Positions 6,337-58,489 of a stretch of DNA of 64,000 nucleotides are shown in pieces (the first letter of the stretch is position 1; the number at the start of each line of letters is the position of its first letter). The stretch spans positions 59,710 through 123,709 of the forward strand of contig JBLIRR010000009.1 in NCBI GenBank assembly GCA_049472395.1, written 5' to 3'. The notes beneath the pieces were generated by a model. That model searched no databases. It saw nothing but the letters and a program-made list of their open reading frames with translations, and was not told the DNA's origin. This DNA comes from a bacterium. GTDB lineage: Bacteria; SZUA-182; DTGQ01; JBLIRR01. A program made the translations under genes and the position numbers.

Positions 6337-6900
6337 TCACAGTGTGAGACCCCATATATCAGACACAGTCAGGAGACTTGCCGGATCTGTCCCAAAGAGA
6401 AAGGGAGGATATAGCGCGAGATAAAAAAGATTCGCTCCGAGAATATTGGGAAGCTCTGCCCGCGTTCCGAGCGGTGGTAAAAATGTATAGTCGGGAGGTA
6501 AGGTTATCGGGAGAGGACTTCCTGTTGCCGGATCTACGAGATATGAGGGGGGAAAGTCACCAAAGCCATAATACATATTAAAATACAGCAATCCGCCACC
6601 TGCCATTGGGGGTATATTAAAAAGCGCCCACGTAACAGGTTTAACGGGGTCCCACGCAAGTACAGGCTCGACAGGAAGAACGGTAGCAGGAGTAAGGTCT
6701 GTAACGATGGGTGTGGGGACACCTGTCGCAGGATCGGGGGGCGAGAGGACGGGAGACCAGAGAGGCCAAAGCAAATTATACGGTGGCAGTGCTGTCCAAT
6801 ATGCTTGGGCGTGCACTGAAGAGAAGGGAGTGATCGCTATCACAGAAACGATTATGAGCATAGGAAATAGTAAAAGAAATATTTTTTTATCTCTGTACAT
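6337..6900 (-). CDS. Secreted P/W/Y-rich protein, divergent member of the LPPYN(T/L)LWPLWSP family
   Basis: Signal peptide ending VHAQA. Motif ALPPYNLLWPLWSPVLSPPDPATGVPTPIVTDLTPATVLP is shared with the 12.5-16.5 kb array. Confidence 0.6.
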   Translation of the reverse strand: MYRDKKIFLLLFPMLIIVSVIAITPFSSVHAQAYWTALPPYNLLWPLWSPVLSPPDPATGVPTPIVTDLTPATVLPVEPVLAWDPVKPVTWALFNIPPMAGGGLLYFNMYYGFGDFPPSYLVDPATGSPLPITLPPDYTFLPPLGTRAELPNILGANLFYLALYPPFLFGTDPASLLTVSDIWGLTL

Positions 6901-7261: not shown

Positions 7262-10200
7262 TCATTCTTCATTCTTTTCACGAGACCTGCCGAGCTTATT
7301 TTCTATGGCAGCAAGCAATTCGGGTGCCCTTATAGGCTTGCTCACGTAGTCATCCATTCCGGCTTCAAGACATCTCTCCCTGTCACCCTTCATTGCATAG
7401 GCGGTGAGAGCGATTATTGATATTCTGTCCCCTTTTTTTGCTTCTGCTTCCATGGTTCTGATCGCTTTGGTTGCGTCTAAACCATCCAGCACAGGCATTT
7501 GCACATCCATCAATATCAAATCTATTGAAGGGTTAGATTTATAGAGTGAAATTGCTTCTTGTCCATCATTTGATACAACCACATTATATCCTGATTTTTC
7601 TAAAACTTTTTTGGTTATTTGTTGATTTGAGATATTATCTTCTGCGATAAGAATAGTATAGGGTGTTTTTGTTTCAATAGGAATTTTTGTGTGTGAGGCA
7701 TTATGTGGTTCTTCTATTTCTGTCGGCGTATAGGGGAGCGTAAAATAAAATGTCGTGCCGTGATCAGCTCCTGTGCGAGATGTGAGTCTAATCTTTCCGC
7801 CCATTAACTCACTTAATTTTTTACAGATTGTAAGTCCCAAGCCGGTGCCGCCATGTTTTCTTGTGTGACTTACATCTGCCTGATGAAAGGGCCTAAATAT
7901 TTCCTTCTGTTTATCTTTAGGTATTCCTACGCCGGTGTCCGACACATAGAATTCTAATGTTTTCTTATTCTTTAAAGAAACGCCATATTCTATCGATCCG
8001 CTCTCAGTAAATTTTATTGCGTTGCTCATGAGATTATGCATTATTTGTTGTATCCTTGTGGGATCGCCCATGATAAATCTGCTTATAGTGTCAGGGCAAC
8101 TTTGTCTTAAGGAAATGTCTTTTCCTTCTTGAGATATGAGCATTGAGCAGTGAGAGTCAATATTATGTAATATGGACTTAAGTGAACAAGGAATAAGTTC
8201 AATTTCTAACTGTCCTGCTTCTATCTTTGAAAGATCTAAAATATCATTAAGAATAAATAATAATAAATTCACACTCTTTTTTATAGTGTGCAAATATTCT
8301 CTATGGTCCTCTGATAATTCATCACTAAGCATTAATTCCGTATAACCAAGTATAGGATTCAGAGGTGTCCTAATCTCATGGGACACATTTGCGAGGAATG
8401 CGGATTTCAAGCAATCAGACTCTTCTGCTTTTTCTTTTGCTTGTTTGAGTTGCTCTTCATATTCCTTAGTCGCTGTGATATCAGAAAAGCAGCCTGTCAT
8501 GCCTATTGGTTTTCCATTGTCATCTGTTAATAGTGATGCTTTGAGGCTCACAAGTAATTCCGTTCCGTCTTTTTTTCTTCCAACCAGTCCTTCTCCTGAA
8601 TAAGAGCCCTCGTTGGTTATAATATTGATGATCTCTTTTGCTTTTCCCCGGCTTTCCTCTGTCCAGTATTCCAGAACATTCTTCTCATACATCTCTTCAT
8701 AATCATTAAATCCCCACATCCTCGCAGCTGACGGATTCGCATACGTTATTGTGCCTTCAAGATCTGCTATGAATATTGCATTGAGAGATGTCTCAACAGC
8801 GCTATGCACTCTTTTTAATTCTTCTTCCACTTTCTTTCTGTCTGTGATATCTTCTCCCGAGCTTAAAATAGCAGTAATTTCCCCTGTTTCATCCCTCAGC
8901 ACGCTATAGTGCCACCTTATCATTCTTTCTTCACCATTTTTTGTAAGCACAGGATTTTCAAAATACTCAGCAGGCTCAATATTCCCGGCTATTAATTTGT
9001 TAAACACAGTTTTCACCTTGTCTCTTCTTTTTTCCGGAAGAAAATGATCGAACCAATTTTTGTTAAGGATCTCCTCTTTCTTGTACCCGAGTATCTCACA
9101 CCCATTTTTATTTATGAGGGTGACCCTCTGGTCGGCATCAATATTTACCAGCATAACTCCGGCAATATCAAGATAATTTTGCGCTTCATTTCTCTGCTGT
9201 CGTAATTCATTCTCTGCGCGTCTTCGCTCAGTGATATCTCTAAAAACACCCAGCAGATATTTCCCGCCGGAAAATGAAACTAAAGTCGAGTTTACATCAG
9301 CATAAAAAACGCCGCCATCTTTTCTCTTTACCGCAATATCTGTGGCAAGCTTAAGCTCACCTTTTGCCTGCTTCTCAAATTGCTCAATGATGTATGGAAG
9401 AGCTTCCTCGGGGTGTATGTCCATTATCCCCAGTGTTTTTATCTCCTCCAGGGTATAACCGAGCATCTGGCATATTGTATTGTTACCCATATCAAATTTT
9501 TTGGTTCCACTATCTGCGATTAATATTCCGTCAGTGGCATTATCGAAAATTGCCCTAAATTTTTGTTCTGATTCTGTTATCTTCTTTTCCCATTCCTTCC
9601 GATCGGTGATATCTATGAAGTTTTCTATGAGACACTTCTGGCCCTCAAGTTCAACTTTGGTCACCGTTTTAAGAATAGGGATTTTTTCACCGCTGGCAGT
9701 AAGGAGTGTACACTCGGACTTATTCACTGTCTCCCCAAGGTCTGTGATCGGGCAGCGTACTTTCTCGTCGGGACAGATATAGTTATGGCATACACTGCCG
9801 AGCAATTTGCCTTTTGGCACTCCACACATCTCGAGAGCCTTGGGATTAGCATTTATAATCTTGTGGGTGTTCGCATCAATCATTACAATCCCCGCGTGCA
9901 CTGTATCGAAGATGGTCCTTAAGTTATACTCGCTTTGTTGCAGCAGATCCTCTGCAATCTTTTTCTCGGTAATATCTTGAATCGCGCCTATCATAATTTC
10001 CGGAGTGCCATCGTTCCCAAGGTGTCTGATTTGAGGTTCTGTAGCAATGATCCAGCGTGTTTCGCCAGAGGGTCTTATAATCCTGTATGTTAATGGTGTG
10101 CCGGTAAATTTTTTAGTAACTCCTAATGCTGCATGGATCACCATTTCTCTGTCATCAGGATGTAAGAGAGTGTCGATAAGTGATTGAAAGGTATCGAATG

Positions 10201-11377
10201 TGTTATGTGTGCATGAAATCCCAAGTATTCTGCACATTTCATCCGACATTGTGAATGAATTATCTTTAAGGTTCCATTCCCAACTTCCCACATGCGCCAA
10301 CTGTTGCGCTCGCTTGAGACTTGCCTCGTTTTCTTGCAGCGACTTTTCAGTCTGTTCGTGTTTCAAGATATTACGCTGAAGTTGCTCGTTGATTGCTCTT
10401 AATTCTTTGGTTCGTTTTGTGACCAATGCCTCAAGATGATCCCTGTTGCGACGTAAATTTCTTGACATTAAATTAAACGATTGGGCTAACTCATTCAATT
10501 CTCGGCTTTGAAGTCCGGAAACTTCCTCGCCAAGATGTGTGCCCTCCTCTGCAATTTGGATTGCCTTATCATGGATCCTTCTGATCGGTGCACACACACA
10601 CTGCCTTACTGTTACATATTGCAGAATAAAAAAGCCTAAAATGATGAGTAATAAAATGCCGGAAAGCTTTAAAGAAAAACAATCAGCCATAGCGTATGCT
10701 GTATAAAGGGGAATGCGTATGGAAACGGCGGACACCGATTCTCCCAACCTACGATTGAATCCCCTTTGGATTCCAAATATATCAATAAGCCCTTGAGGTG
10801 CTATTTCCGGTGTGCTGTGACATTTCAGGCACGGCTCCGATATGGAAAAAGACCTCTTGAGAATTGTAAGATATGGCTCTCCATTAAATTTACGGATTGT
10901 TGAACGGCTCATAAGTTCCGGATTGATATTAAGCTCATTAATGAATGTCCTTTCATAGTCGTCCGCTTCATTTTTAGGACTTCGAGCATTGATAGCACAA
11001 TTTTTAAAATATAAATTGTCGGAATTTCTCGCTTTAAAATAGTCGTCAATCCTCCTGTTGGCATAGGTAGATGACATCCAGGTCGGATTAAAATATTCAA
11101 CTGGCACGTATTTTTCACCTATTGTAAAGGCATTCGGTTTTAGATCATGAAAAAAATAATCATGAACTGCTAATGTTCTGTCGAGGATAATTTCAGCCTT
11201 TGCTTGGGCCTCTGTAAGAGCCTGCGATCGCATGTGATAATTGACGAGTAAAACGATGGATATCGAAGATAGTGTAAATATAAAGGCTGTGATGATAGTA
11301 AGATATGTGGTAATCCTTAAAGGGAAAATTCTTTTTTTATATTCATTGATAATTTTTAAAAGTCTAGTAAATACCAT
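7262..11377 (-). CDS. Hybrid sensor histidine kinase: TM - CxxCH heme-type sensor domain - TM - about 5 PAS domains - HisKA - HATPase - C-terminal receiver
   Basis: CLKCH motif in the periplasmic-loop region (DUF3365-like sensor). Repeated PAS signatures ending ...DITERK. H-box FLANVSHEIRTPLNPI. G-box GTGLGLTICKKL. Receiver LIAEDNISNQ...LILMDVQMPVLDG. Confidence 0.85.
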   Translation of the reverse strand: MVFTRLLKIINEYKKRIFPLRITTYLTIITAFIFTLSSISIVLLVNYHMRSQALTEAQAKAEIILDRTLAVHDYFFHDLKPNAFTIGEKYVPVEYFNPTWMSSTYANRRIDDYFKARNSDNLYFKNCAINARSPKNEADDYERTFINELNINPELMSRSTIRKFNGEPYLTILKRSFSISEPCLKCHSTPEIAPQGLIDIFGIQRGFNRRLGESVSAVSIRIPLYTAYAMADCFSLKLSGILLLIILGFFILQYVTVRQCVCAPIRRIHDKAIQIAEEGTHLGEEVSGLQSRELNELAQSFNLMSRNLRRNRDHLEALVTKRTKELRAINEQLQRNILKHEQTEKSLQENEASLKRAQQLAHVGSWEWNLKDNSFTMSDEMCRILGISCTHNTFDTFQSLIDTLLHPDDREMVIHAALGVTKKFTGTPLTYRIIRPSGETRWIIATEPQIRHLGNDGTPEIMIGAIQDITEKKIAEDLLQQSEYNLRTIFDTVHAGIVMIDANTHKIINANPKALEMCGVPKGKLLGSVCHNYICPDEKVRCPITDLGETVNKSECTLLTASGEKIPILKTVTKVELEGQKCLIENFIDITDRKEWEKKITESEQKFRAIFDNATDGILIADSGTKKFDMGNNTICQMLGYTLEEIKTLGIMDIHPEEALPYIIEQFEKQAKGELKLATDIAVKRKDGGVFYADVNSTLVSFSGGKYLLGVFRDITERRRAENELRQQRNEAQNYLDIAGVMLVNIDADQRVTLINKNGCEILGYKKEEILNKNWFDHFLPEKRRDKVKTVFNKLIAGNIEPAEYFENPVLTKNGEERMIRWHYSVLRDETGEITAILSSGEDITDRKKVEEELKRVHSAVETSLNAIFIADLEGTITYANPSAARMWGFNDYEEMYEKNVLEYWTEESRGKAKEIINIITNEGSYSGEGLVGRKKDGTELLVSLKASLLTDDNGKPIGMTGCFSDITATKEYEEQLKQAKEKAEESDCLKSAFLANVSHEIRTPLNPILGYTELMLSDELSEDHREYLHTIKKSVNLLLFILNDILDLSKIEAGQLEIELIPCSLKSILHNIDSHCSMLISQEGKDISLRQSCPDTISRFIMGDPTRIQQIMHNLMSNAIKFTESGSIEYGVSLKNKKTLEFYVSDTGVGIPKDKQKEIFRPFHQADVSHTRKHGGTGLGLTICKKLSELMGGKIRLTSRTGADHGTTFYFTLPYTPTEIEEPHNASHTKIPIETKTPYTILIAEDNISNQQITKKVLEKSGYNVVVSNDGQEAISLYKSNPSIDLILMDVQMPVLDGLDATKAIRTMEAEAKKGDRISIIALTAYAMKGDRERCLEAGMDDYVSKPIRAPELLAAIENKLGRSREKNEE

Positions 11378-11678: not shown

Positions 11679-12062
11679 TTATTGTATTTGAGGAATTTTC
11701 ACAAATTCACGAGTATTATTAGTAACCAATACAACAGCAAGGCTTCTGGCGTGAGCGGCAATAAGCATATCCATAGCACCAATGGGTTGGCCAATTCTCT
11801 CCAAGTATGTCCGTATATCGCCATAGTGAGAAGCTGCGCGATCGTCATAGGGGATTATCTCTAAAGGGGCCAAAAAACTATTTAAAGCATCCCTATTCTG
11901 ATCAGGTTTACTGCTCTTAGAGATACCATATTCAAGTTCAGAGAGAGTAATAGAGGAAATTCCTATGTCTGACATATTGAATGTCCGAAGTTTGTTGATA
12001 ACATTGATGGGTTTTTTTTTGATTATATAGATGCAGATATTGGTATCAACCATAAAACGCAT
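11679..12062 (-). CDS. vapC: PIN-domain toxin VapC
   Basis: N-terminal MVDTNICIYII (conserved PIN aspartate). About 127 aa. Stop of the upstream antitoxin gene abuts its start. Confidence 0.8.
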   Translation of the reverse strand: MRFMVDTNICIYIIKKKPINVINKLRTFNMSDIGISSITLSELEYGISKSSKPDQNRDALNSFLAPLEIIPYDDRAASHYGDIRTYLERIGQPIGAMDMLIAAHARSLAVVLVTNNTREFVKIPQIQ

Positions 12063-12289
12063 TAAAATCTCTCCCTTCTCTCCGTGGGAGGTTGCTCTCG
12101 GTCGGTCATAAAGTCATCGCTGAATTGATCTAAGCTGCTGATAAAAGACGCCCAAGGATCATCCTTTGGAATGAGTAAAACATTGCGACCAATTCTTTTT
12201 ATATAAACCTCTTCCCCCTGGAATTTAAATTCTTTGGGGAGCCTTACTGCTTGACTTTTTCCATTCTTAAAAATTTTTGCTGTATTCAT
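12062..12289 (-). CDS. vapB: VapB antitoxin (AbrB/MazE-type swapped-hairpin)
   Basis: 75 aa, KNGKSQAVRLPKEFKFQGEEVYIKRIGRNVLL. Adjacent to and translationally coupled with vapC. Confidence 0.7.
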   Translation of the reverse strand: MNTAKIFKNGKSQAVRLPKEFKFQGEEVYIKRIGRNVLLIPKDDPWASFISSLDQFSDDFMTDREQPPTERRERF

Positions 12290-12496
12290 TGTTCTTCCTT
12301 TTTCTTTTTTAATATATATTTAAAAGTATATACTAATAAAAAAGAATTGTAAATTTATAGGGAGCGATTCGAATGCTATTGTCGATATTGAATCAACTAT
12401 GATGCTTAATTTTTTCCTAAATGATGGTATATGGAAATTTCTGTGAGTTTTATGCAGGCATAAGGAGGTATGATTTGAAGCTATAATAAGGATAAA

Positions 12497-12538
12497 CTAC
12501 TGTCAGACCAGACCTTTGTATAGGTGGTCTGACAGTAG
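12497..12538 (-). terminator. Perfect 14-bp inverted repeat (CTACTGTCAGACCA / TGGTCTGACAGTAG) followed on the minus strand by a U-rich tract; terminator of the tandem secreted-protein array
   Basis: Stem 12497-12510 / 12525-12538 with a 14-nt loop. The minus-strand continuation reads TTTATCCTTATTAT. It lies 14 bp past the stop of 12552..13163. Confidence 0.55.
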
Positions 12539-12551
12539 TAGTACACGCAGC

Positions 12552-13163
12552 CTAAAGTCCCAGAATGAGACCTGGCGTAAGCAGTGAAATATAGGCGGGT
12601 GGAGGATTAAGAAGAGCAGCAAAGAGGGGATAACTTGCCAATGTGCCTCCTTGTGCAATCTCATAGGCAACGGCATAGGCTGTATAGCTATTATAATATG
12701 CATTATTTCCTATGGGTACATAGGTAGTAAGCCATGCTGTGGATGTGGGGGCAAGTGTGGACCAGCCTTTTATCAGACTTAGATTAATAGGCAGCGGAGT
12801 CCCCAAAAGAGGATCCAGAAGATAACTTGGCGGCCAGAGATTCACCCCATACAAAGGATCAAAATAGGCCATGCCAAGTTTCGTATTATATAAAAGGTAG
12901 GGGTAGGCCAGGTCCGGATCCCAGGTGAGACCGGGTTGTATCGGAAGAACAGTGCTGCTTGTAAGGCTGCTTACAATAGGGGTCGCAACTCCTGTTATGG
13001 GATTAGCGGGAGATAAAATAGGGGACCATAACGGCCATAATGTATTGTAAGGTGGAAGAGCAGCCCACGTTTGCGCCTTGACGAGAGGTGCATGCCACAT
13101 ATAGATGCATATTATACAAATAAAAAAGATAAGTAATTTATACACGAATTTTTTTGATGTCAT
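12552..13163 (-). CDS. Secreted LPPYNTLWPLWSP-family protein (paralog 1 of tandem array)
   Basis: Signal peptide. AALPPYNTLWPLWSPILSPANPITGVATPIV...LTPGLILGL. About 60-70% identity to neighbouring paralogs, judged by eye. Confidence 0.7.
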   Translation of the reverse strand: MTSKKFVYKLLIFFICIICIYMWHAPLVKAQTWAALPPYNTLWPLWSPILSPANPITGVATPIVSSLTSSTVLPIQPGLTWDPDLAYPYLLYNTKLGMAYFDPLYGVNLWPPSYLLDPLLGTPLPINLSLIKGWSTLAPTSTAWLTTYVPIGNNAYYNSYTAYAVAYEIAQGGTLASYPLFAALLNPPPAYISLLTPGLILGL

Positions 13164-13212
13164 ATTTCTATTCTCCTTTATTTCCCTCTATTATTGTTAA
13201 GCTATTATTGCG

Positions 13213-13854
13213 TTAAGGTCCAAGTATAAGTAGTGGAGTGAGTAAAGAGCTGTATGCAGGCGGAGGATTGATAAGAGCGGCAAAAAGCGGATAGGTTGAA
13301 AGCGTCCCTCCCGCGGCAATTTCATAAGCAGTTGCAAATGCCGCATAGGCATTATAGTATGCGCTGTTTGCTACCGGTACATTGGCAAGAAGCCAGGTAG
13401 TAGAGGTCGGAGCTAGTGTGGACCAGCCGAGAATTAAGCTTAAATCGATGGGAAGGGGATTGCCGAGAGTATCGAGCAGATCAGATGGTGGCCATAAATT
13501 GACTCCCCAGAATGGATCATAATAGGTCATTCCAAGGGGAGTATTATAGAGTAAATAAGGATAACTTTTTCGTGGATCAAGAGTAAGCCCGGGTTGGAGA
13601 GGAAGGACCGTGTTGGTCGTCAAACTGGTTATTATCGGTGTCGGAGCACCTGTGATTGGATCGATGGGGGAGAGGGAAGGAGACCATAACGGCCACAGAG
13701 TATTATAGGGTGGCACAGCGCCCCAATTTGGGGTGGCAGGTACTACCGGTAATAGTACTGCATGTGCCCTGTGCGATTGAACGAATCCCAGAATCATAAT
13801 GGCAAAGCAAATCATAATGATTTTACTTAATTTACTTCGTAATACCTTATTCAT
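13213..13854 (-). CDS. Secreted LPPYNTLWPLWSP-family protein (paralog 2)
   Basis: Signal peptide ...HRAHA. GAVPPYNTLWPLWSPSLSPIDPITGAPTPII. C-terminus LLTPLLILGP. Confidence 0.7.
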   Translation of the reverse strand: MNKVLRSKLSKIIMICFAIMILGFVQSHRAHAVLLPVVPATPNWGAVPPYNTLWPLWSPSLSPIDPITGAPTPIITSLTTNTVLPLQPGLTLDPRKSYPYLLYNTPLGMTYYDPFWGVNLWPPSDLLDTLGNPLPIDLSLILGWSTLAPTSTTWLLANVPVANSAYYNAYAAFATAYEIAAGGTLSTYPLFAALINPPPAYSSLLTPLLILGP

Positions 13855-13889
13855 ATTCTATTCCTTTTTATCTAAAATTTATAATACTT

Positions 13890-14519
13890 TTACAATCCTA
13901 AAATTAAAGCCGGAGTCAACAGAGAAATATAGGCAGGAGGTGGATTGAGCAAGGCTGCAAATAACGGAAAACTTGCGAGGGTGCCTCCGAATGCAATCTC
14001 ATACGCCACACCGTAACTTGGGTATGTATTATAATAGGCACTGTTTGCTACCGGTACGTTGAGCGAGAGCCAAGTGGTAGAAGTCGGAGCAAGGGTAGAC
14101 CATCCCAGAACTAAGGATAAATCTATAGGCAGAGGAGTGCCTAAGACCGGATCTACCAGATAACTGGGCGGCCATAAGTTTATCCCTTCAAAGGGATCAT
14201 AATATGCCATGCCTAATGGAGTGTTATAGAGGAGCCAAGGATAGTCCTTGTTCAAAGCGTCCCAGGTTAAGCCGGGTTGGACCGGAAGCACTGTGCTTGG
14301 AGTAAGGCTATTGACAATAGGATCAGGAAGCAGGGTAATTGGATTTATGGGTGATAGGGCAGGCGACCATAAGGGCCATAACGTGTTATAGGGCGGAAGT
14401 GGTATCCATGTGGTTTTACTTGTCAAAAGCACTGCATTCGACTTTGATGCATAAGCACAACATATACATAGAAAGAGTATTATCATTATTACATACTTAA
14501 AATCTTTTTTTCTTATCAA
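13890..14519 (-). CDS. Secreted LPPYNTLWPLWSP-family protein (paralog 3)
   Basis: Signal peptide. IPLPPYNTLWPLWSPALSPINPITLLPDPIV. C-terminus LLTPALILGL. Confidence 0.7.
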   Translation of the reverse strand: MIRKKDFKYVIMIILFLCICCAYASKSNAVLLTSKTTWIPLPPYNTLWPLWSPALSPINPITLLPDPIVNSLTPSTVLPVQPGLTWDALNKDYPWLLYNTPLGMAYYDPFEGINLWPPSYLVDPVLGTPLPIDLSLVLGWSTLAPTSTTWLSLNVPVANSAYYNTYPSYGVAYEIAFGGTLASFPLFAALLNPPPAYISLLTPALILGL

Positions 14520-14656
14520 GACATATCTCCTTATCTTTCTCTCTTCATCTAAATGAAATCCTTATACTTTAGCTAATAACTCATTAATCATAATTTTTCT
14601 ATAGCACTCACCCCTTTCTCTTTAAAATATATATACATTCATACAGCTATGGTCTA

Positions 14657-15310
14657 CTATGGTCTAATCAAGACCATAGTCCCATAATCACTTTGAAAAG
14701 GATTGTAAATTGAGTAAGTCCCGTCCATAAGAGTTGATGAAATCACATTGCAATTTAAGGTAATGGTAAATAATCTCTGCGAAAATGGATTGATATAAGT
14801 GCCTGTTAATTGAAAAGTACTGGCTACCCCGACCGGATTAATGATTCCTGATACAGGGAATCCGGATATTACAAGAGGGTGATTCGCAAAAAGAGCAGTT
14901 CCGGTTACTACTCCTGATATCACATCCTGCGTAAGAATAAGGCTTATTTCTCCTCCACTCACTCTGGCCAAACTGGACCATGTCCCAATCCAATTACTTG
15001 TGGCCAAATTGGAGTTTGCTACAGTCACCGTATTGAGCAACGTTGGTGGTGGCGTCGCCAAAAGTGAAGTGACGGTTAATCCGGCGGAGGTTAAGACAGG
15101 CGCCGATACAATTGTGGTCAATGCCTGCGCCTGTCTTAGCAATGGATAGAATGGATTTAGGGTTATTACAGGTAAGCGGGGTGTGAAAGCAACTGATAAA
15201 ATTGGATCTGGTGGGGGCGGCAAAAGTTGTGCGCTTGATGGAAACTGTAAAGAAAATAGTATAGCTATACATAAGATAATAGCAATCTTTAGTCTATTTA
15301 TTAATTTCAT
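14657..15310 (-). CDS. Secreted protein homologous to the C-terminal domain of the 15389..16492 product (lacks the LPPYNTLWPLWSP N-domain)
   Basis: Signal peptide. The region ...WIGTWSSLARVSGGEISLILTQD...TGTALF...TITLNCNVISSTLMDGTYSIYNP aligns with ...WSGLWNSLLNVSQLGPMNLTLSQN...TGTASL...TVTLNCTITSATTMSGTYSII of the neighbouring gene. A direct-repeat/hairpin (CTATGGTCTA x2 ... AGACCATAG) overlaps its stop. Confidence 0.6.
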   Translation of the reverse strand: MKLINRLKIAIILCIAILFSLQFPSSAQLLPPPPDPILSVAFTPRLPVITLNPFYPLLRQAQALTTIVSAPVLTSAGLTVTSLLATPPPTLLNTVTVANSNLATSNWIGTWSSLARVSGGEISLILTQDVISGVVTGTALFANHPLVISGFPVSGIINPVGVASTFQLTGTYINPFSQRLFTITLNCNVISSTLMDGTYSIYNPFQSDYGTMVLIRP

Positions 15311-15388
15311 GAAAGATATCCTTTTAATATAGTATTAATCTCTATTATCGATGATTTATAATATTACTAATCAATAGTATTGATAAAT

Positions 15389-16492
15389 CTATAGCGCGGT
15401 TACATTAAAGCTTCCAAAGTCACTTTCTTTAAGGCTTATGATAGAGTATGTTCCGCTCATTGTGGTTGCACTGGTTATGGTGCAGTTTAAGGTAACAGTA
15501 TAATCGATCGGTACGAGCACTAATCCGCTGAGGGCAAGTTGATAGTCGGTAAAAATACCTGTTAAGGTAAAGGTAGTGCCGCCGAGGAATGTACCACTTA
15601 CCGTCACAGGCAAAGGAACAAGCTTATTTAATATTAATGAAGCCGTTCCGGTAACAGCACCGGTAGTTGTATTTTGTGATAAAGTGAGATTCATAGGCCC
15701 TAATTGACTCACATTGAGAAGACTATTCCATAGTCCACTCCAATTAGTGATAACAGGAGCTGCAACAGTAGTGCTCGGAGTCAGTGATCCCCCGCCGACG
15801 CTCGGAAGAAGAAATGTAAGGGCTGAAATGGCTGCGGTTGGGACTGGCACAGTAGGAACTGGTGCAGGTATTATCGGCGTTGGAGGTGCCGGTGTAATAG
15901 GTGCCATAGGAATCCCCGGCAGAGGTGTCCCCACAATTGCAGCAGCAGTGAGGAGAGAGGTAAGGGGCGGCGGTATTACAGCTGTGGTTGCTGCCGGTCC
16001 GCCAGGAGGTAAAGTAAGAGATGGAAGAGCACTTAAGTATGCAAGATTAGCAGCAGGCACCAGGTTTTTCAATGTAGAGAAAGACGTCGGTGGAAGGGCG
16101 GAATACCCTGGTGGTAAAACTATTGGCGAAGGTGTGTTACCGTGTAGCAAATATTTAGGAGGCCAGCTATTTATTCCAAATAAGGGATCGAAATAGACCA
16201 TCCCGATAGGGGAATTATAAAGAAGCCATGGATAAATAGAAGCTGGATCCCAGGTTAATCCTGGCATCTCAGGAAGAAAAGTGTCTTGTGTGAGGCTGCT
16301 TACCAAAGGAGTGGGTAAACCTGTAGCAGGGTTTGTAGGAGATAAAGCAGAAGACCATAATGGCCATAAAGTATTATACGGTGGAAGGGCTTGCCAATTC
16401 TGAGCAAAGGTCAAGTGTGGGTATAGAAAAAGAACAATGGCAAATGTTAATAAAATTTTGATTATATGATTTCTTTTGATTATTATTTTCAT
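15389..16492 (-). CDS. Secreted two-domain protein: LPPYNTLWPLWSS N-domain + Pro-rich linker + C-domain shared with 14657..15310
   Basis: Signal peptide ...LTFAQNW. QALPPYNTLWPLWSSALSPTNPATGLPTPLV. Linker PITPAPPTPIIPAPVPTVPVPT. C-terminal domain as described for 14657..15310. Confidence 0.7.
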   Translation of the reverse strand: MKIIIKRNHIIKILLTFAIVLFLYPHLTFAQNWQALPPYNTLWPLWSSALSPTNPATGLPTPLVSSLTQDTFLPEMPGLTWDPASIYPWLLYNSPIGMVYFDPLFGINSWPPKYLLHGNTPSPIVLPPGYSALPPTSFSTLKNLVPAANLAYLSALPSLTLPPGGPAATTAVIPPPLTSLLTAAAIVGTPLPGIPMAPITPAPPTPIIPAPVPTVPVPTAAISALTFLLPSVGGGSLTPSTTVAAPVITNWSGLWNSLLNVSQLGPMNLTLSQNTTTGAVTGTASLILNKLVPLPVTVSGTFLGGTTFTLTGIFTDYQLALSGLVLVPIDYTVTLNCTITSATTMSGTYSIISLKESDFGSFNVTAL

Positions 16493-16583: not shown

Positions 16584-17006
16584 TTACATTTTGTAATGTC
16601 TTTCTTCGTGCCTCTTAATTAATTCCATAATTGTATGTGGATAATAAGGCTTTTTTATAATCTGGATTTGGTCGGCATAGGGACTTTGCTCTATCAACGT
16701 AGAATTTGAACTGTCATCCTTCATTAGCACGAGGTGTCTGGCGATCTGTTGATGATTGTTTTCGAAAAGAAATGTAATAAATTCTAAGCCATTTTTCCCT
16801 GGTAAGCGGAAATCGACGAATCCTATTCTGATGCCCTCAGAATTTTTTCGCGTATTTTGTACTATGAGATTGTAATACTCCTCTGCAGATTTGTTAACCA
16901 TTACTTCATAACCGCATATTTCTATAAGATTTTTTAAATAATTTACCAGTAGTGTATTCATGCTAATTATGGAGGCTTTTTTATGCTCTTCATCCATAGC
17001 AATCAA
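16584..17006 (-). CDS. Stand-alone receiver-like (pseudo-receiver) domain protein
   Basis: CheY-like fold signature FVDFRLPGKNGLEF (phospho-Asp position) and IIKKPY (K-P). The N-terminal acidic pair is missing. Confidence 0.45.
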   Translation of the reverse strand: MIAMDEEHKKASIISMNTLLVNYLKNLIEICGYEVMVNKSAEEYYNLIVQNTRKNSEGIRIGFVDFRLPGKNGLEFITFLFENNHQQIARHLVLMKDDSSNSTLIEQSPYADQIQIIKKPYYPHTIMELIKRHEERHYKM

Positions 17007-17318
17007 TTGAAAAATGTGATTAATTTAATAGATTATTCTTCTTGAAAGCTTTAATTCATCCTGTAGGGAGCGATAGAGAGGATGATAAGCAACAAATATG
17101 CCAAAATCAAGATGCATGGCATTTTACCTACAAGGTTATGCGTGCAGATACGCAACTCGTGCGAGAGGACAGACTGCTTTTAAAGATGCAATAGTACCAA
17201 ATTGGTACAAAAGAAATAGATAATGTGATTTAACATATTGATTTATTTAATCTTTTCTATGTTGTCATAATTCTAATACACCTGTTAAATTTTGGTATAG
17301 TGGTATAGTTGAGGAGCA

Positions 17319-18706: not shown

Positions 18707-20680
18707 TTATGGAGCAGGCAGATAAATACTAAATGTGGACCCTTTGCCTTCTTCAGAAGACACTGAGATATCTCCGCCATGTTCCTTGATTATGTTATAC
18801 GAAATAGATAATCCAAGGCCTGTTCCGCCCTTGCTCCCTTTTGTAGTATAAAATGGGTCGAATATTTTATTCATTATCTCTTGATTCATACCACACCCGT
18901 TATCACTTATTTTTATAAGTATAGCATTTTTGATATATTTTGTTATAATAGTAATTTCGCCCTTTTCGTTGTGTATGGCGTGAGATGCATTCAAGAGTAT
19001 ATTCGTTATTACTTGTTCTAATCTATAGAATTTCCCCTTTATAAGAGGAAGGTCAGGCGCCAAAATTTTCTTTATATGAGGTACTCTTTTGGAGAGTTCT
19101 TCTCGTATTAAGAGCATCGTCTGCTCAATAACGAGATTAATATTCACATCATTGATATGGTTCGAAATTTCTTGCCGGGAAAACTCTTTGAGCCCGTATG
19201 TGATTTTGTGAATACGTTCTATTCCGCATGCTATTCCATCCATAAGGGCATCGAGTCTCTCCTTGATTGCCATGTAATCTATACCTGCGGTTATAAATTG
19301 TTCGTTTCTGTATGCGCGATCTAAAATTGGTCGAATGTCTTCAATAAATTGTTTGATAACAGGAAAATTAAGCATAATGAATGTTGTCGGATTATTAATT
19401 TCATGGGCTATTCCTGAAACCATTCGGCCTAAAGAGGCCATCTTTTCAGCCTGTATAAGTTGTAGGTGTTTCCTGTCCTTCTCCTCGATAATACGAGTAA
19501 TATCAGTAATATCTTCTAATACCTCAATCACATTTTCTGGTTCTCCTTTTTCATTTAAAAGAGGGGATGCACTTACTCGATATATTCTCTTTTCATTCTT
19601 TGACACCACATGTATCTCTTGTTCCATTTCAAGCCTGCCTGTGTGGAATGCTCTCACGGCAGGACATTTTTCGCAGATTTGCTCTCTGTCCTTATAAATT
19701 GTATAGCATTTTTTGCCCCTGATCCTTTTATCCTTGAGAGTTGATTCTATTGCCTTGTTCGTCCATAATATATTCATATCTTTATCTAAAATAGAAAGCC
19801 CTACATTTACCCCCGAGACAATGGCTTTTAATTTCTCTCTTTCTGTTTTTAATTCATTTTCAATAGTGCGTTTTTCAGTAATATCGTTTCCTGAATAAAG
19901 AATGCCTATATTATTACCACTTTCATCAGATATGGGTGCATTATTCCATTCAATGAGATGTTTTTCACCCTGACTATCCACCACATATCCTTCATAATGG
20001 TGATCCTCTGCTTTATTTCCTGACAGGAGTTTTTTAAAAATTTTGGCTTCTTTATTCGCACTATTGTCCTGAGGAAGGCAGGTTTCGAACCAATTTTTAC
20101 CGATCAGTTCGTATTGAGAGCGTTTAAGAATATGTTGTGCCTTTTGATTAGCCTGAATAATGATTCCATTTCTGTTAATCACAATGAGTATGATCCCTGC
20201 TATGTCCATATATTTTCTGGCAATATCTCTTGCCTTTCGCACATATTCCGTAGATTCTATGCGTTCGACTATCTTTGATACTCTCTCTGCAACCGCATTC
20301 AGTAAAATCCTTTCTTCTTTAAGGAATGGTCCTTCATCGTGTTCAGGCTTTTTTTCTTTATAGTATATTGTTATATTTCCACGTTTTTTTTTGTGAGGAG
20401 TAATATCAGCACAGAGAGCCCATTGACTTCTGCGAAAGTGAGTGCTTCTGCATTTAAATCCATCCAGTACGATACTCGCACACGCACACTCCGAATAGCG
20501 CGATGAATGAGGGAGAATGTTAGCTATTTTCTGAAGAATTTCAAAGAGGTTCCTATTTTCTTCATCAACGATTCTTGAAATGCCATAAAGACAATTAAGT
20601 TGTTTAATGTAGGTAGTATTTTTTAATAAAATTTCGTGTTTATCTAAGTCTGCGTTGTTTTTTTTGATAATATTAACCAT
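18707..20680 (-). CDS. Cytoplasmic PAS-domain sensor histidine kinase, cognate to the 17319..18698 regulator
   Basis: PAS segments (...NDITEKR). H-box VSGIAHEINNP. HATPase NASHAI...GGTGLGLSISYNII. Overlapping stop/start with the downstream regulator. Confidence 0.8.
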   Translation of the reverse strand: MVNIIKKNNADLDKHEILLKNTTYIKQLNCLYGISRIVDEENRNLFEILQKIANILPHSSRYSECACASIVLDGFKCRSTHFRRSQWALCADITPHKKKRGNITIYYKEKKPEHDEGPFLKEERILLNAVAERVSKIVERIESTEYVRKARDIARKYMDIAGIILIVINRNGIIIQANQKAQHILKRSQYELIGKNWFETCLPQDNSANKEAKIFKKLLSGNKAEDHHYEGYVVDSQGEKHLIEWNNAPISDESGNNIGILYSGNDITEKRTIENELKTEREKLKAIVSGVNVGLSILDKDMNILWTNKAIESTLKDKRIRGKKCYTIYKDREQICEKCPAVRAFHTGRLEMEQEIHVVSKNEKRIYRVSASPLLNEKGEPENVIEVLEDITDITRIIEEKDRKHLQLIQAEKMASLGRMVSGIAHEINNPTTFIMLNFPVIKQFIEDIRPILDRAYRNEQFITAGIDYMAIKERLDALMDGIACGIERIHKITYGLKEFSRQEISNHINDVNINLVIEQTMLLIREELSKRVPHIKKILAPDLPLIKGKFYRLEQVITNILLNASHAIHNEKGEITIITKYIKNAILIKISDNGCGMNQEIMNKIFDPFYTTKGSKGGTGLGLSISYNIIKEHGGDISVSSEEGKGSTFSIYLPAP

Positions 20681-22333: not shown

Positions 22334-24514
22334 ATGAAAAAATGTATTATTATCGCAATTATTATAAGCATAAGTCTTTTTTACACCTCATGTATGCAGG
22401 AGAATGAGGAGGTGCCAGAAGGTGTGCGATATGACATCACTGAACCGACAATCCATGGCAGAAGGCTAGCAGCGCTCTCCTCGGTCGATGATTGTGATGA
22501 GCTGCTTGCACATTTAAAGGAGGCTGCAATAGAGGATATGGAAGCAAAGATTGATGCCTATGCATCGAGTATCGAGGAGTGCGGCGGGTGCTGTTATATG
22601 TATGTGGGCTATGCAGAGGATATGGATGGAGGGACTATTGCTACCTCAGCCAATGACACCACAAGAAATGAAGAAGGAGGGGCTTCTGAGTATTCTACAA
22701 CGAACAATCAGGTCGTTGGCGTTGATGAAGCTGATTTTATTAAGAATGATGGTTCATATATATATATTCTTGCTGATAATAAATTTCAAATAATCAAAGC
22801 ATGGCCTCCTGGTGAGGCGGAAACGGTGAGTAAGGTTGATATTGAGGGAATCCCCAAAAAACTCTTTATTTCCTCAGACAGGGCGTTAGTCTATTCAAGT
22901 GGCGACTATATCGGGATACAGAATCAGTATCCTGAGTATTATAATTACTGGTATTCCGATAATGAGTGTACCTACGGGTATGATTGCGATTTTACGGGCG
23001 ATAACCGTCGACTGAAAATAACCGTGTATGATATTTCAGATCGATCGAATCCTTCTCTTCTCAGAGAAATTCGGTTCTCAGGTTCCTTTATTAATGCTCG
23101 ACGGATAGGAAAGGCTGTGCATACAGTAATTATTTCCCCGACATTCTCATCTCCTGATATCAAATACTGGCCGGACATCCTGCAAGAGTGTTGGTACAAT
23201 TATGAGGACACACCAACACTGCAAGAGCTTCTCTCAGCATTTGAGGAGCTTAAGCAGACAAACCGTGAAATTATTGACAATTCAACTATTATTGATTGGA
23301 TTCCCAGCATAGAGGATGTGCGTTATGAGGAGAGTGGGATAGTATCTGACAGCAGTCTTATTCAAGATTGCAGTAATTTCTATGAAACCAATCGAGGGGA
23401 GCGCCAGTCTTTTCTTACCGTGTTCTCACTTGATATTGATCAGATGGGGGAGCTTCATCAAGTAAGTATTGTGGGACGTCCGGGAGCTGCCTATGCTTCT
23501 TCCTCTGCCCTTTACATAGCTGCCAGACAGCAAGTCAATTCTGCCTATGGCTGGTTCTACGAGGATAGGGCAGGCATAGAGGAGGCGAGTATGGTTCATA
23601 AATTTAGGCTGCAAGAAAATCCCGCACGATGTGAGTATGCGGGTAGTGGCGTTGTGAAAGGCAGGGTCCTTAATCAGTTTTCTATGGATGAATATGATGA
23701 TCATTTCCGTATTGCGACAACAACCGGCCATCTTCCCAGTTCGAATGTTCACAGCACATTAACTATTCTCAAGGAAGACTCAGAGGAACTGAGAATTGTC
23801 GGACAGGTTGATAATATTGCTCCTTCCGAAGATATTAGATCAGTCAGGTTCGATGATTCCAGGGCGTTTATTGTGACCTTTAAAAAAACTGATCCGCTTT
23901 TTGCCTTCAATTTGATCGACCCTACAGCGCCGAGAATTGAGGGGGAGCTGAAAATCCCCGGATATTCCACCTATATGCATCTTATGGATGAGAACCATTT
24001 GCTCACTATAGGGTATGACGCAGATGATGTAGGAGACTTTGCCTGGTTTCAGGGCATTATGTTGCAGATATTCGATGTGTCTGATATGTCCGACCCTCAA
24101 CAGGTTCACGAGGAAGTGATCGGCACACGGGGAAGCACCTCAGAGGCAGCGACAAACCACCTTGCCTTTAATTATTTTTCTCCCAAGGACCTTCTCGCGA
24201 TCCCCATAACAATCTGTGAGGGAGAAGAGGGGGGCAGTTCCTATGGCACAGAGATGACCTTCAGCGGACTGCTCGTCTATAATGTAACCGTGGAAAATGG
24301 CTTTGCAGAGCCGGGTCGTGTCTCACATGTGGAGCCGGGGACTGAAGAGAGCGCTCATGCATGTTATAATTGGTGGACAAACTCACATTCGATCGTTCAA
24401 CGGAGTATTTTCATGGATGATTATGTGTATTCCGTGGCACTTGATGAGATTAGAATTCAGAGCCTGGATAACCTGGGAAATGATATATGTGTCATAGACC
24501 TCACAGAAGAATAA
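22334..24514 (+). CDS. Secreted lipoprotein with beta-propeller domain (Beta_propel-type), paralog of the C-terminal region of 58490..62476
   Basis: Lipobox LFYTSC. Good RBS GGAGAGG. Collinear similarity to the large protein, e.g. RIEGELKIPGYSTYMHLMDENHLLTIGYD / IFDVSDMSDPQQV versus RIEGELEIPGWSTHIEPRGERLIALGVDD / LFDVSDMKDPQLM. Confidence 0.7.
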   Translation: MKKCIIIAIIISISLFYTSCMQENEEVPEGVRYDITEPTIHGRRLAALSSVDDCDELLAHLKEAAIEDMEAKIDAYASSIEECGGCCYMYVGYAEDMDGGTIATSANDTTRNEEGGASEYSTTNNQVVGVDEADFIKNDGSYIYILADNKFQIIKAWPPGEAETVSKVDIEGIPKKLFISSDRALVYSSGDYIGIQNQYPEYYNYWYSDNECTYGYDCDFTGDNRRLKITVYDISDRSNPSLLREIRFSGSFINARRIGKAVHTVIISPTFSSPDIKYWPDILQECWYNYEDTPTLQELLSAFEELKQTNREIIDNSTIIDWIPSIEDVRYEESGIVSDSSLIQDCSNFYETNRGERQSFLTVFSLDIDQMGELHQVSIVGRPGAAYASSSALYIAARQQVNSAYGWFYEDRAGIEEASMVHKFRLQENPARCEYAGSGVVKGRVLNQFSMDEYDDHFRIATTTGHLPSSNVHSTLTILKEDSEELRIVGQVDNIAPSEDIRSVRFDDSRAFIVTFKKTDPLFAFNLIDPTAPRIEGELKIPGYSTYMHLMDENHLLTIGYDADDVGDFAWFQGIMLQIFDVSDMSDPQQVHEEVIGTRGSTSEAATNHLAFNYFSPKDLLAIPITICEGEEGGSSYGTEMTFSGLLVYNVTVENGFAEPGRVSHVEPGTEESAHACYNWWTNSHSIVQRSIFMDDYVYSVALDEIRIQSLDNLGNDICVIDLTEE

Positions 24515-24754: not shown

Positions 24755-25630
24755 ATGAAGAAATTAGAGCCCATGATTATTATGGGACGGGACTTTAGCG
24801 TTGAGGAACTCAAGCTTATCAAGGAGATGGTGGAGTTATACCCTAAATTGAGCAGGACGGAATTGGCAAAAACCATATGCGAGAACATCTTCTGGGAAGC
24901 GCCTAATGGGATAATAAAACATAATAGTTGTCTTAAAGCGCTTGAGAAACTGGAAGAACAGGGACATATTGAACTGCCGGTGCTGCGATCACCAAAATCC
25001 AGAAAGCAAACAAAAATATGCATTACTCCGAGGAGCGATCCTGCTGAGATGATGGAGGGGCGCATAGATCAATGGGGAAGTATTACTATAGAAAAAACAA
25101 ATACAAAAAATGTTGGATTATGGAATGAATATATCGAGAGATATCACTACCTGGGATATAAAATCCCCTTTGGTCTGCATCAAAAATATTTTGTGACATT
25201 AGGGGGACGAGTGGTTGCGTGTATGTTATATACTTCCTCAGCTTGGGCGTTGGAGTGCAGAGATAAATGGATCGGATGGTCGGCAAGGCAGAAAGAAAAA
25301 AACCTCACCCGTATTGCCAATATGAGCCGCTTTCTTATATTGCCCTGGGTGAGGCTGAAGAATCTCGCCAGTTGCACCATCTCTTTATCGTCAAAGCTTA
25401 TAGAGGGGGATTGGGAGGAAAGATTTGGGTATAAGCCTGTTTTACTTGAGAGTTTTGTTGATGCTACCCTCTATAAAGGGACTTGTTACCGGGCGGCAAA
25501 CTGGATTTATCTGGGGCAGAGCAAAGGCCGTGGCAGGCAAGATCGCTATAATAAAGGTTTGTCCACTATTAAAGACGTATTTGTGTATCCACTCTGTGAT
25601 GACTTTAGAGAAGAGTTATACAAGATATGA
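24755..25630 (+). CDS. Conserved hypothetical protein, tentatively DUF4338-like
   Basis: Motifs YHYLGY and NMSRFLILPWV that I associate with DUF4338-type proteins. A possible sigma-70 promoter upstream has TTGACA-18 bp-GATAAT at about 24706-24735. Confidence 0.45.
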   Translation: MKKLEPMIIMGRDFSVEELKLIKEMVELYPKLSRTELAKTICENIFWEAPNGIIKHNSCLKALEKLEEQGHIELPVLRSPKSRKQTKICITPRSDPAEMMEGRIDQWGSITIEKTNTKNVGLWNEYIERYHYLGYKIPFGLHQKYFVTLGGRVVACMLYTSSAWALECRDKWIGWSARQKEKNLTRIANMSRFLILPWVRLKNLASCTISLSSKLIEGDWEERFGYKPVLLESFVDATLYKGTCYRAANWIYLGQSKGRGRQDRYNKGLSTIKDVFVYPLCDDFREELYKI

Positions 25631-40112: not shown

Positions 40113-40127
40113 GTGAGGTAAAGCGCG

Positions 40128-41678: not shown

Positions 41679-41705
41679 CATAATATAAATAAAAAGGTGA
41701 GTTGA

Positions 41706-42560: not shown

Positions 42561-42615
42561 AATTTTTATTCCGGCGCAGCCGGCAATATTATCTTTACAA
42601 GGGGGAGGATAATTT

Positions 42616-53930: not shown

Positions 53931-53966
53931 ATACTGTCTCCTTTCATGTGGTTAAAATTTTGGTCG

Positions 53967-55442: not shown

Positions 55443-55451
55443 AAGATACCT

Positions 55452-58209: not shown

Positions 58210-58489
58210 AAATCATAATTATATAGAGGCGATTTTTTTTTTCAAGAAAGATGATAATTTTTTCGCAATTTTCATTTTGGATTATAGATTATATAAGAAA
58301 TGCCGGCAATTTTTCAGGCATTTTTTTTGCATAAAATTTTTTTTAGTACTTAGAAAATGAAAGAATAGTATAATTTCGTTGTCTTTTCATAAAAGATTAA
58401 AGTAACAAATAGCGCATGAGCGCATGACTTTTTTGTTAAAATTAATAAATAAAATGTATATATACATTTCAAAAAAAGGGGCGGAGAGA

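Follow-up and report, generated by a model that had tools for sequence, protein, structure and literature searches.

A compact arrangement for the control of surface structures is known from the PilS-PilR-PilA cassettes of Pseudomonas, Myxococcus, and Geobacter, which combine a histidine kinase, an NtrC-family sigma-54 activator, and the gene for the major subunit of the surface structure. Meanwhile, the PE/PPE proteins of mycobacteria are constructed from motif-named N-terminal modules of ~100-180 aa followed by variable C-termini, and many copies of them are present in one lineage. Herein, a locus that invites comparison with both is described from a 64,000-nucleotide stretch of bacterial DNA (hereafter the window), which covers positions 59,710 to 123,709 of the forward strand of contig JBLIRR010000009.1 in assembly GCA_049472395.1 (GTDB lineage Bacteria; SZUA-182; DTGQ01; JBLIRR01). 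Five adjacent minus-strand genes (12552-16492) encode exported proteins, four of which share a Pro- and Trp-rich module, termed WPLW after its signature PPYNTLWPLWS. The WPLW protein family and its fold are undescribed and hence new at that level, while the functional category may turn out to be ordinary. Judged from its predicted promoter and gene layout, the locus is organised as a sigma-54, two-component-controlled operon of Sec-exported proteins. We infer that this operon builds or anchors a charge-free structure at the cell surface or in an extracellular matrix, a reading of function and location to which a little less than an even chance is given. The features of the cassette, together with a separate WPLW gene of the window, are as follows:

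18707-20680 (-), PAS-domain histidine kinase, 657 aa (Pfam PAS_4, PAS_9, HisKA, HATPase_c), with no obvious N-terminal transmembrane segment
17319-18698 (-), NtrC-type sigma-54 activator (bacterial enhancer-binding protein, bEBP), 459 aa (Response_reg, Sigma54_activat at 1e-64, AAA_lid_14, HTH_8)
17194-17208 (-), palindrome GTACCAA-T-TTGGTAC, perfect, 15 bp, ~100 bp upstream of the -24 element; candidate upstream activating sequence
17089-17103 (-), predicted sigma-54 (-24/-12) promoter TGGCATATTTGTTGC(T), a near-consensus pattern match
16584-17006 (-), small atypical receiver-like protein, 140 aa, with a weak Response_reg match (E 6.8e-5, below the gathering score)
15389-16492 (-), 367-aa fusion of signal peptide, WPLW module, Pro/Thr-rich linker, and C-terminal domain (CTD); profile score 228 bits
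14657-15310 (-), 217-aa secreted protein with signal peptide, Pro/Thr/Leu-rich N-terminal half, and CTD beta-barrel (~14660-15025), without a WPLW module
13890-14519 (-), WPLW protein, 209 aa, of the class with a 10-12 aa N-terminal extension (SNA↓VLLTSKTTW..., the arrow marking signal-peptide cleavage)
13213-13854 (-), WPLW protein, 213 aa, of the class with an N-terminal extension
12552-13163 (-), WPLW protein, 203 aa, whose module starts at mature residue 1 (VKA↓QTW...); the protein that was modelled
~12496-12539 (-), intrinsic-terminator-like hairpin with a 14-bp perfect stem ACTACTGTCAGACC/GGTCTGACAGTAGT, followed by UUUAUCCUUAUUAU
6337-6900 (-), shorter WPLW paralogue (187 aa) outside the array, following the gene of a 1371-aa hybrid sensor kinase; profile score 190 bits

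An earlier note on this DNA, made from the letters and their open reading frames (ORFs), had described five adjacent minus-strand genes, each with a Sec signal peptide, and both the ORFs and the signal peptides were confirmed. As read from the translations, all five array proteins begin with a Sec-type signal peptide built of a basic n-region, a hydrophobic core, and an AxA-type cleavage site, and neither a lipobox nor a twin-arginine motif occurs in any of them. A six-frame motif scan located PPYNTLWPLWS in four of the five array ORFs (13032-13055, 13690-13713, 14373-14396, and 16361-16384), as the note had stated for its W/P-rich block. The C-terminal LLTPxLILGL, which the note had included in the shared sequence, holds as LLTPxLILG(L/P) for the three short proteins and lies internally, as SLLTAAAIVG, in the 367-aa protein. 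Identity among the three short paralogues amounts to 65-70% across ~200 aa, and the 367-aa protein shares ~50% identity with them over ~185 aa. The array had also been taken for five paralogues, of which four do share the WPLW module; the 217-aa gene is related to the array via the CTD. Two further copies had been proposed elsewhere in the window. The first, at 6337-6900, carries the motif variant PPYNLLWPLWSP (6766-6783) and is 41-49% identical to the other copies in the window. The second, at 48903-49352, was rejected as a family member, since it has no motif and its profile-profile alignment covers the signal peptide alone (hhalign probability 1.8%). This latter ORF (minus strand) encodes a 149-aa secreted Pro/Tyr/Thr-rich protein that is nearly uncharged, matches no family, and is as odd in composition as the WPLW proteins; it is adjoined by the gene of a BON-domain protein (49515-49961, minus strand). 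At the nucleotide level, the W-P-L-W codons (tgg cca tta tgg) form a short inverted repeat, GGCCATTATGGTC, at 16353-16365 and 13024-13036 (minus strand), which the terminator scan flagged and which was dismissed as a terminator because it is a by-product of the motif codons.

The earlier note did not recognise the family, and database searches bore this out. For the seven candidate proteins, Pfam-A returned 0 families at E <= 1 and NCBIfam returned two chance-level matches (E 0.2-0.3), both for one protein, and otherwise none; the WPLW profile gave 0 matches at E <= 1 among 177,635 PDB sequences. A hidden Markov model (HMM) was then built and searched against the databases, as the note had advised, which recovered a large but narrow undescribed family. 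Among 5.8 billion proteins, a five-sequence profile detected at least 755 homologues at E <= 1e-3, a number far above chance, and the named homologues are all 'hypothetical protein' from metagenome-assembled genomes (MAGs) labelled 'bacterium' only. Across the MAGs carrying the family, the NCBI labels read 'bacterium' or 'Pseudomonadota bacterium', and among the matches listed a Pfam domain was annotated in 0 of 120 homologues. Since only 102 clusters emerged when 1.84 billion representatives at 50% identity were searched exhaustively with the HMM, the family is phylogenetically narrow. Eleven genomes among the GTDB species representatives were positive, with 117 confirmed matches. The carrier genomes (GC 38-53%) each contain 3-21 or more family genes at up to 15 loci and come from Futian mangrove/mudflat sediment, cold seeps, Zodletone spring, and other sites. 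Most family genes are singletons, and tandem arrays reach nine genes (locus L074). The 'local expansion' suggested by the note is therefore not an apt description of a family that is dispersed over many loci per genome and whose cassette is duplicated as a unit. No confirmed relatives were found in 2.9 million IMG/VR viral contigs, and the notion that the genes are borne by phages or mobile elements was discarded on this ground and because they lie among chromosomal genes for signalling and metabolism. In the literature, searched by motif and by MAG accession, no paper that contains the motif or treats the family came to light; the MF1/MG MAGs were traced to Futian mangrove and mudflat sediments. 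The window itself contains no rRNA, tRNA, Rfam match, or universal marker gene.

The regulatory part of the cassette lies directly upstream of the array. The bEBP is composed of a receiver, an AAA+ sigma-54 interaction domain, and a Fis-type HTH. The sequence at 17089-17103, TGGCATATTTGTTGCT, fits TGGCAC-N5-TTGCW on the coding strand upstream of the first operon gene, and both this predicted promoter and the palindrome are situated inside the 312 bp that separate the bEBP gene from the receiver-like gene. A sigma-54 operon needs a cognate activator, and here a protein with Sigma54_activat and HTH_8 is encoded directly upstream, accompanied by a candidate site. The first gene transcribed from the predicted promoter would be that of the receiver-like protein, in which the phospho-acceptor Asp and the K-P motif are kept and the N-terminal acidic pair is absent, as read from the translation. 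From this gene through the five array genes, the gaps measure 35-137 bp, each with a Shine-Dalgarno-like sequence, all genes are on a single strand, and the terminator scan detected no convincing internal terminator in the operon. At the far end, the 14-bp perfect hairpin terminator recorded in the note was verified: the hairpin has a dG of -28.7 kcal/mol (z = -3.8), and 0 of 200 shuffles fold as well. This gene layout suggests that the receiver gene and the five array genes are transcribed as one unit, and the palindrome is a candidate binding site of the activator.

Comparable wiring is found at other family loci. A strict TGGCAY-N5-WTGCH site, sought on the coding strand 100-900 bp upstream of the motif, is present at 19 of 86 arrays, and the opposite strand gave 1 such site, where 1.5 were expected. 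At 17 or more other loci, related bEBP genes occur no further than 6 kb from family genes, and their density is 2.15 per 100 kb within this distance versus 0.31 per 100 kb at 6-10 kb. At three loci (L003, L007, and L038), the bEBP gene is divergent from the family genes and the shared intergenic region holds the sigma-54 site. No further exact copies of the palindrome were found in other family loci, so it seems to be specific to the activator of this cassette. Elsewhere in the window, the lone WPLW copy is directly preceded by the gene of the 1371-aa hybrid sensor kinase (7262-11377, minus strand), which contains a Tll0287-like sensor, HAMP, four PAS domains, HisKA, HATPase, and a receiver.

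The same eight-gene cassette, in the same order, was found in the sister MAG GCA_049472375.1 (locus L080). The sigma-54 promoter TGGCATAGTAATTGCT stands at the equivalent position there, and the palindrome recurs as GTACCAATTTGATAC, with one mismatch, inside otherwise diverged intergenic DNA. Between the window and L080, the short WPLW proteins show amino acid identities of 82% (203/203 pair, dN/dS 0.07), 77% (213/213 pair, dN/dS 0.05), and 87% (209/208 pair, dN/dS 0.09). The 367-aa protein has a 400-aa orthologue (73% identity, dN/dS 0.13), and the receiver-like gene is 58% identical (dN/dS 0.11). The adjacent kinase and activator, which occupy the same positions in both genomes, are less conserved than the WPLW genes, with 65% (dN/dS 0.11) and 74% amino acid identity, respectively. 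Same-position WPLW orthologues pair 1:1 at 77-87% identity, compared with only 61-70% for cross-position pairs, and dS is saturated for the orthologue pairs as well as among the paralogues. The 1:1 orthology, the dN/dS of 0.05-0.13, and the saturated dS indicate that the array is old and that each position has been kept by purifying selection as a non-redundant part, as is expected for the distinct parts of one assembly. The dN/dS analysis, another of the checks put forward in the note, thus speaks for purifying selection at every array position, and the 'diversifying' function proposed there is contradicted by these values, by the 1:1 orthology, and by the lack of any detected DNA-level tandem repeats in the array.

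In addition, a cassette of one CTD protein gene and 2-3 WPLW genes is duplicated within genomes, for example as ACMUJM_13815-13830 in the source genome and at L082 in the sister genome, where the copy has no kinase and activator of its own. Clustering of 644 neighbour ORFs from 80 loci showed that only two-component and sigma-54 signalling proteins recur beside the family; sulfatase-TPR, ABC ATPase, S8 subtilase, large propeller proteins, pullulanase, and GGDEF proteins are inconsistent neighbours. Downstream of the cassette in the sister MAG, two more perfect sigma-54 motifs were noted (L080:11006-11021 and 12242-12257), the first of which precedes the gene of a 151-aa single-domain receiver, and a similar receiver gene lies near the second array (L082:12092-12545). 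Small receivers may recur as components of these regulons.

The WPLW module begins no more than 12 residues from the mature N-terminus, spans ~130-170 aa, and has a conserved core of ~130 aa. In ~60% of the members, it starts at mature residue 1 (AxA↓Q-Y/N/T-W), and the remaining members carry a conserved extension of 10-12 residues before the module (AxA↓V-P/L-L...). Trp, Pro, Tyr, Leu, and Gly account for most of the invariant positions; W3, Y9, W13, and W16 are invariant, and W80 and W114 nearly so. Mature WPLW proteins consist of 16% Pro, 15% Leu, 4.3% Trp, and 5.5% Tyr. Charged residues are extremely scarce, with 0.9% Lys, 0.6% Arg, and 1.1% Glu (K+R+E ~2.6%), and the proteins have a pI of ~4 and a GRAVY of ~+0.4. 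Structure prediction of the WPLW core, likewise recommended in the note, was performed with AlphaFold2 on the mature 203-aa protein using a 103-sequence alignment, and a confident model was obtained (pLDDT 93.7, pTM 0.88). In this model, the signature forms an N-terminal beta-hairpin (WAAL, turn PPYN, TLWP; strands E3-6 and E11-14), and the rest is made up of four more short strands, long Pro-rich loops that are placed with confidence, one helix of 29 residues, and short helices at the C-terminus. Fold comparison of this predicted, Pro-locked combination of a small beta-sheet and a long helix returned no match to any solved structure.

What follows the core varies widely. It may be a helical part ending in the hydrophobic LLTPxLILGL; tandem repeats rich in Pro, for example (APLPVPTAI)n or (PTTWVGPTIPTTFVG)n; or a linker with one or more CTD barrels. 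Other members continue into large extracellular domains: P0131 and L045 have a right-handed beta-helix with PKD and Chlam_PMP repeats, P0143 has an LVIVD propeller, and P0166 has FG-GAP, BACON, and discoidin domains. In P0141, the WPLW module stands behind a region with the metzincin-type motif HEVGHALGLGH. One module that is common to many unrelated exported proteins and also exists in short stand-alone forms bears the signature of an anchoring or assembly module. The same sharing is also compatible with a binding module.

The CTD connects the array to further families. The C-terminal 120 aa of the 217-aa protein match the C-terminal end of the 367-aa protein at 38% identity (E 3e-11), and the latter is therefore a fusion of a WPLW module and a CTD. 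As modelled, the CTD adds a new sequence family to the soluble eight-stranded barrels, a known class of folds. In every strand, family members keep hydrophobic residues on one face, while the opposite face is polar and varies between them, and a C-terminal aromatic residue is absent; the polar variable face and the missing aromatic residue indicate a soluble, avidin-like barrel rather than a membrane barrel. The comparison of the CTD also listed the outer-membrane barrels OmpW, OprF-N, and NspA beside it. An eight-stranded outer-membrane barrel of the OmpA, OmpW, OmpX, or NspA kind was ruled out because there is neither a lipid-facing hydrophobic variable face nor an aromatic beta-signal. Avidin and streptavidin are likewise eight-stranded up-and-down barrels, although the resemblance is one of fold only, and Pfam Avidin gave no match at E <= 1 for either CTD protein; DUF1842 is a further soluble barrel of eight up-and-down strands. 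Soluble eight-stranded barrels also include the C-terminal barrels of the type 11 secretion (Slam) cargo proteins fHbp, NHBA, TbpB, and hemophilin (PMC12282271). The CTD is likewise a C-terminal barrel, as in these cargo proteins (PMC12282271), but its partners are (GLYG)n repeats, Pro-rich segments, and the WPLW module instead of haem- or metal-binding effectors. The CTD proteins had no Pfam match to TbpBBD, and the idea that they are type 11 secretion cargo was abandoned, as no DUF560 protein is encoded in three loci (among the scanned ORFs of the window and the larger ORFs near CTD genes in L031 and L057).

The CTD family has 111 detectable members (P0221-P0331), all of them in MAGs that also carry WPLW genes. 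Its commonest architecture comprises a signal peptide, 'AYYG', (GLYG)n repeats (30-40% Gly, ~20% Leu, 10-20% Tyr), and the CTD; proteins of this kind, among them L031:13956-16009 and L057:4313-5314, resemble elastomeric or structural glycine-rich proteins. WPLW-CTD fusions recur outside the window, as in P0123 with two barrels and P0129 with one barrel and a Pro-rich tail. A third uncharged secreted family, 'cluster 3', consists of Pro/Thr-rich proteins of 150-220 aa with an aromatic/Pro-rich start and a conserved core, PLAPLITYTPLSLIGLTYAPVP, and five loci have its genes interspersed with WPLW genes:

L002:2561-4420; L003:10757-11257; L004:8546-8998 and 10690-11235; L007:10685-11260; L008:6719-8674, 'cluster 3' genes

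One 'cluster 3' representative was searched against Pfam and gave no match. The N-terminal half of the 217-aa protein was considered as a relative of 'cluster 3' and rejected, the similarity being not significant (3.3 bits, bias 26.8).

Taken as a whole, the locus could work as follows. The soluble PAS histidine kinase would phosphorylate the NtrC-type activator, which would bind the palindrome ~100 bp upstream and open the sigma-54 promoter at 17089-17103. A single transcript would then carry the receiver-like gene and the genes of the five Sec-exported proteins, ending at the hairpin at ~12496-12539. Outside the diderm cell, the WPLW module may act as the common building or anchoring unit of a hydrophobic, nearly charge-free coat or matrix, in which the stand-alone paralogues of ~200 aa would be non-redundant structural subunits. 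The module could in addition tether Pro-rich stalks, adhesin-like beta-helices, propellers, a protease, and CTD barrels to this coat or matrix, with the 367-aa fusion presumably linking the WPLW proteins to the (GLYG)n-CTD proteins. Different arrays might be switched on by their own sensor/activator pairs. The coat or matrix is proposed because the module is fixed at the mature N-terminus, because of the charge-poor composition, the recurrent fusions, and the many copies per genome, and because co-located families, namely the (GLYG)n-CTD proteins and 'cluster 3', share the odd composition. Support also comes from the diderm context given by the OmpA-family, LpoB-like, LPP20, and BON genes in the window.

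Several observations weigh against this proposal. The structural model is that of a single chain, and its alignment is shallow in diversity (46-90% identity). A recognisable sigma-54 site is present in only about a fifth of the arrays, none was found in the 360 bp upstream of the lone copy at 6337-6900, and the bEBP enrichment is based on 17 genes (binomial p ~0.02). Among the 644 neighbour ORFs, no export, sorting, polymerisation, or assembly gene is conserved beside the family. Moreover, the beta-helix, PKD, discoidin, and BACON partners are equally typical of enzymes that carry carbohydrate-binding modules (CBMs).

The last point leads to the alternative that fares best, in which WPLW would be a new carbohydrate- or particle-binding, CBM-like module whose Trp/Tyr/Asn/Pro platform directs enzymes and adhesins towards a substrate, either polysaccharide or hydrophobic, and whose stand-alone copies are secreted binding proteins. 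The invariant aromatic residues (W3, Y9, W13, and W16, with W80 and W114 close behind) would suit such a platform, the fusion partners (right-handed beta-helix, PKD, F5/8 type C, BACON, and FG-GAP) are domains with which CBMs usually occur, and pullulanase-/amylase-type enzymes and sulfatases are found among some neighbours. However, the neighbours are not consistently carbohydrate-active, and no fold similarity to any CBM in the PDB is seen. The predominance of stand-alone proteins of ~200 aa in arrays with fixed orthologous positions would be unusual for CBMs, and the near-zero charge and positive GRAVY fit self-association or membrane contact better than a soluble lectin. This explanation is accordingly regarded as unlikely.

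A somewhat weaker case can be made for an ordered surface filament, which we consider distinctly improbable. Here, the short WPLW subunits would polymerise by a donated terminal strand, either the N-terminal extension or LLTPxLILGL, the cassette would act as PilS-PilR does for pilA, and the fusions would be tip or decoration subunits. The order of kinase, sigma-54 activator, and structural genes does resemble pilS-pilR-pilA, each array contains several distinct and individually conserved subunit types, and both the hydrophobic C-terminal peptide and the two N-terminus classes are conserved. Nevertheless, the monomer model is complete and confident with no missing strand, the fusion proteins have the SLLT...G motif in their interior, a class III (prepilin) signal is missing, and no usher, chaperone, sortase, or pilus-assembly gene occurs in the window or among the annotated recurrent neighbours. 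Type IV pilins in particular were excluded, since WPLW cleavage occurs at AxA↓Q(Y/N/T)W or AxA↓V(P/L)L and not at G↓F/M-x-x-x-E, and the mature N-terminus is a predicted beta-hairpin instead of a hydrophobic alpha-helix.

The proposed coat or matrix can also be extended into a bolder scheme, to which similarly low credence is attached. A new charge-free envelope or matrix would be assembled from three or four modules (WPLW, (GLYG)n, 'cluster 3', and the avidin-like barrel), the barrel would dock onto the Trp/Pro-rich peptide of WPLW in a cohesin-dockerin-like manner, and many sensor/activator/promoter units would remodel the surface according to the signal.

Two other explanations retain hardly any weight. 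Diversifying or phase-variable surface antigens, exchanged among paralogues or fast-evolving to evade phages, predators, or immunity, would account for secreted proteins that occur in multi-copy tandem arrays and vary in their C-terminal parts, but they are very hard to reconcile with the low orthologue dN/dS (0.05-0.13), the 1:1 match at each array position, the age of the dS-saturated paralogues, the lack of DNA tandem repeats and of any recombinase or invertible-element signature among the annotated neighbours, and the better conservation of the WPLW genes than of their regulators. Secreted effectors, toxins, bacteriocin-like proteins, or substrates of the radical SAM/SPASM proteins 15 kb away (30002-32942) are brought to mind by small secreted proteins near such genes and are barely credible, given that no immunity, transporter, or modification genes are in the cassette or conserved nearby, that a charge-free composition with 16% Pro is unlike known toxins, and that the copies are numerous, stably orthologous, and missing from viral contigs.

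The remainder of the window offers several observations of its own. Directly downstream of the array terminator, a toxin-antitoxin-like pair of 127 aa and 75 aa with a one-base overlap (11679-12289, minus strand) was read by eye as a candidate VapC (PIN)/VapB-like pair, and a Gp49/HTH pair takes the counterpart position in L080. The window is very rich in signalling proteins, for example a MASE3 kinase (27124-29061) and a REC-PAS protein (25643-27001). Large beta-propeller proteins of PF09826 are encoded at 22334-24514 and 58424-62476 (both plus strand); the second also contains a chagasin-type peptidase inhibitor (I42) domain and LVIVD repeats, and LVIVD is a WPLW partner as well (P0143). The two adjacent radical SAM/SPASM proteins at 30002-32942 (minus strand), one with an N-terminal SPFH/Band 7 fusion, are flanked by the unannotated ORFs 29357-29995 and 32954-33874; the region may be a peptide-maturation cluster, and no link between it and the WPLW array was found. 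Defence-related genes encode a DruA-like (Druantia) protein and an AbiEii nucleotidyltransferase toxin, at 24755-25630 and 47446-48294 (both plus strand). A cluster of LPP20-family and LpoB-like lipoprotein genes occupies 53346-57040 (minus strand), with unannotated neighbours at 51990-53345, 53967-55442, and 57196-58209, and VWA-OmpA-TelA genes lie at 39345-43821. The LPP20/LpoB-like cluster and the VWA-OmpA-TelA genes suggest a diderm envelope of the host.

If the coat or matrix reading is true, WPLW would represent a new protein fold and a new way to assemble or decorate the bacterial surface, used repeatedly per genome by an uncultured lineage known only from anoxic sediments (mangrove/mudflat, cold seep, and sulfidic spring). 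It would also provide a handle on the envelope make-up of this lineage and on the signals that remodel the envelope through an unusually large set of sigma-54 activators. The databases would gain a well-defined domain family with at least 755 members, all of which are now "hypothetical". Folded extracellular proteins do not usually lack charge almost entirely, as several co-located secreted families do here, and this may interest those who work on self-assembling or hydrophobic protein materials, and the wiring of one sigma-54 regulator per array is unusual too.

Among the known systems, the PilS-PilR-PilA cassettes are matched in the kinase, the activator with its receiver-AAA+-HTH order, the -24/-12 promoter, the exported structural genes, and a palindrome at a typical enhancer distance. 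The array differs from them in its ordinary Sec signals, its soluble PAS kinase, and its five structural genes plus a receiver, and no pilus machinery is encoded nearby. Chaplins, hydrophobins, curli subunits, and TasA are, like the WPLW proteins, small, secreted, multi-paralogue, low in charge, and hydrophobic, which suggests self-assembly at the surface. In contrast, WPLW is predicted to be well packed and globular rather than an amyloid repeat, there is no sequence relationship, and, as regards curli and TasA, no nucleator or secretion partner (CsgB, CsgG, or TapA) is encoded near the WPLW array. WPLW has no sequence or fold similarity to SLH domains, dockerins, or pilin-like N-terminal domains and is almost uncharged and Pro/Trp-rich, but it shares with them the use of a terminal module on unrelated extracellular passengers and on short stand-alone proteins. 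The PE/PPE proteins are not homologous either, and they differ in that WPLW proteins are exported by Sec instead of ESX, combine a beta-sheet with a helix instead of forming a helical bundle, and are under strong purifying selection. Nevertheless, both families are restricted to a lineage, carry a Pro-containing N-terminal signature ahead of variable and often low-complexity C-termini, and are encoded by paired or tandem genes at many loci.

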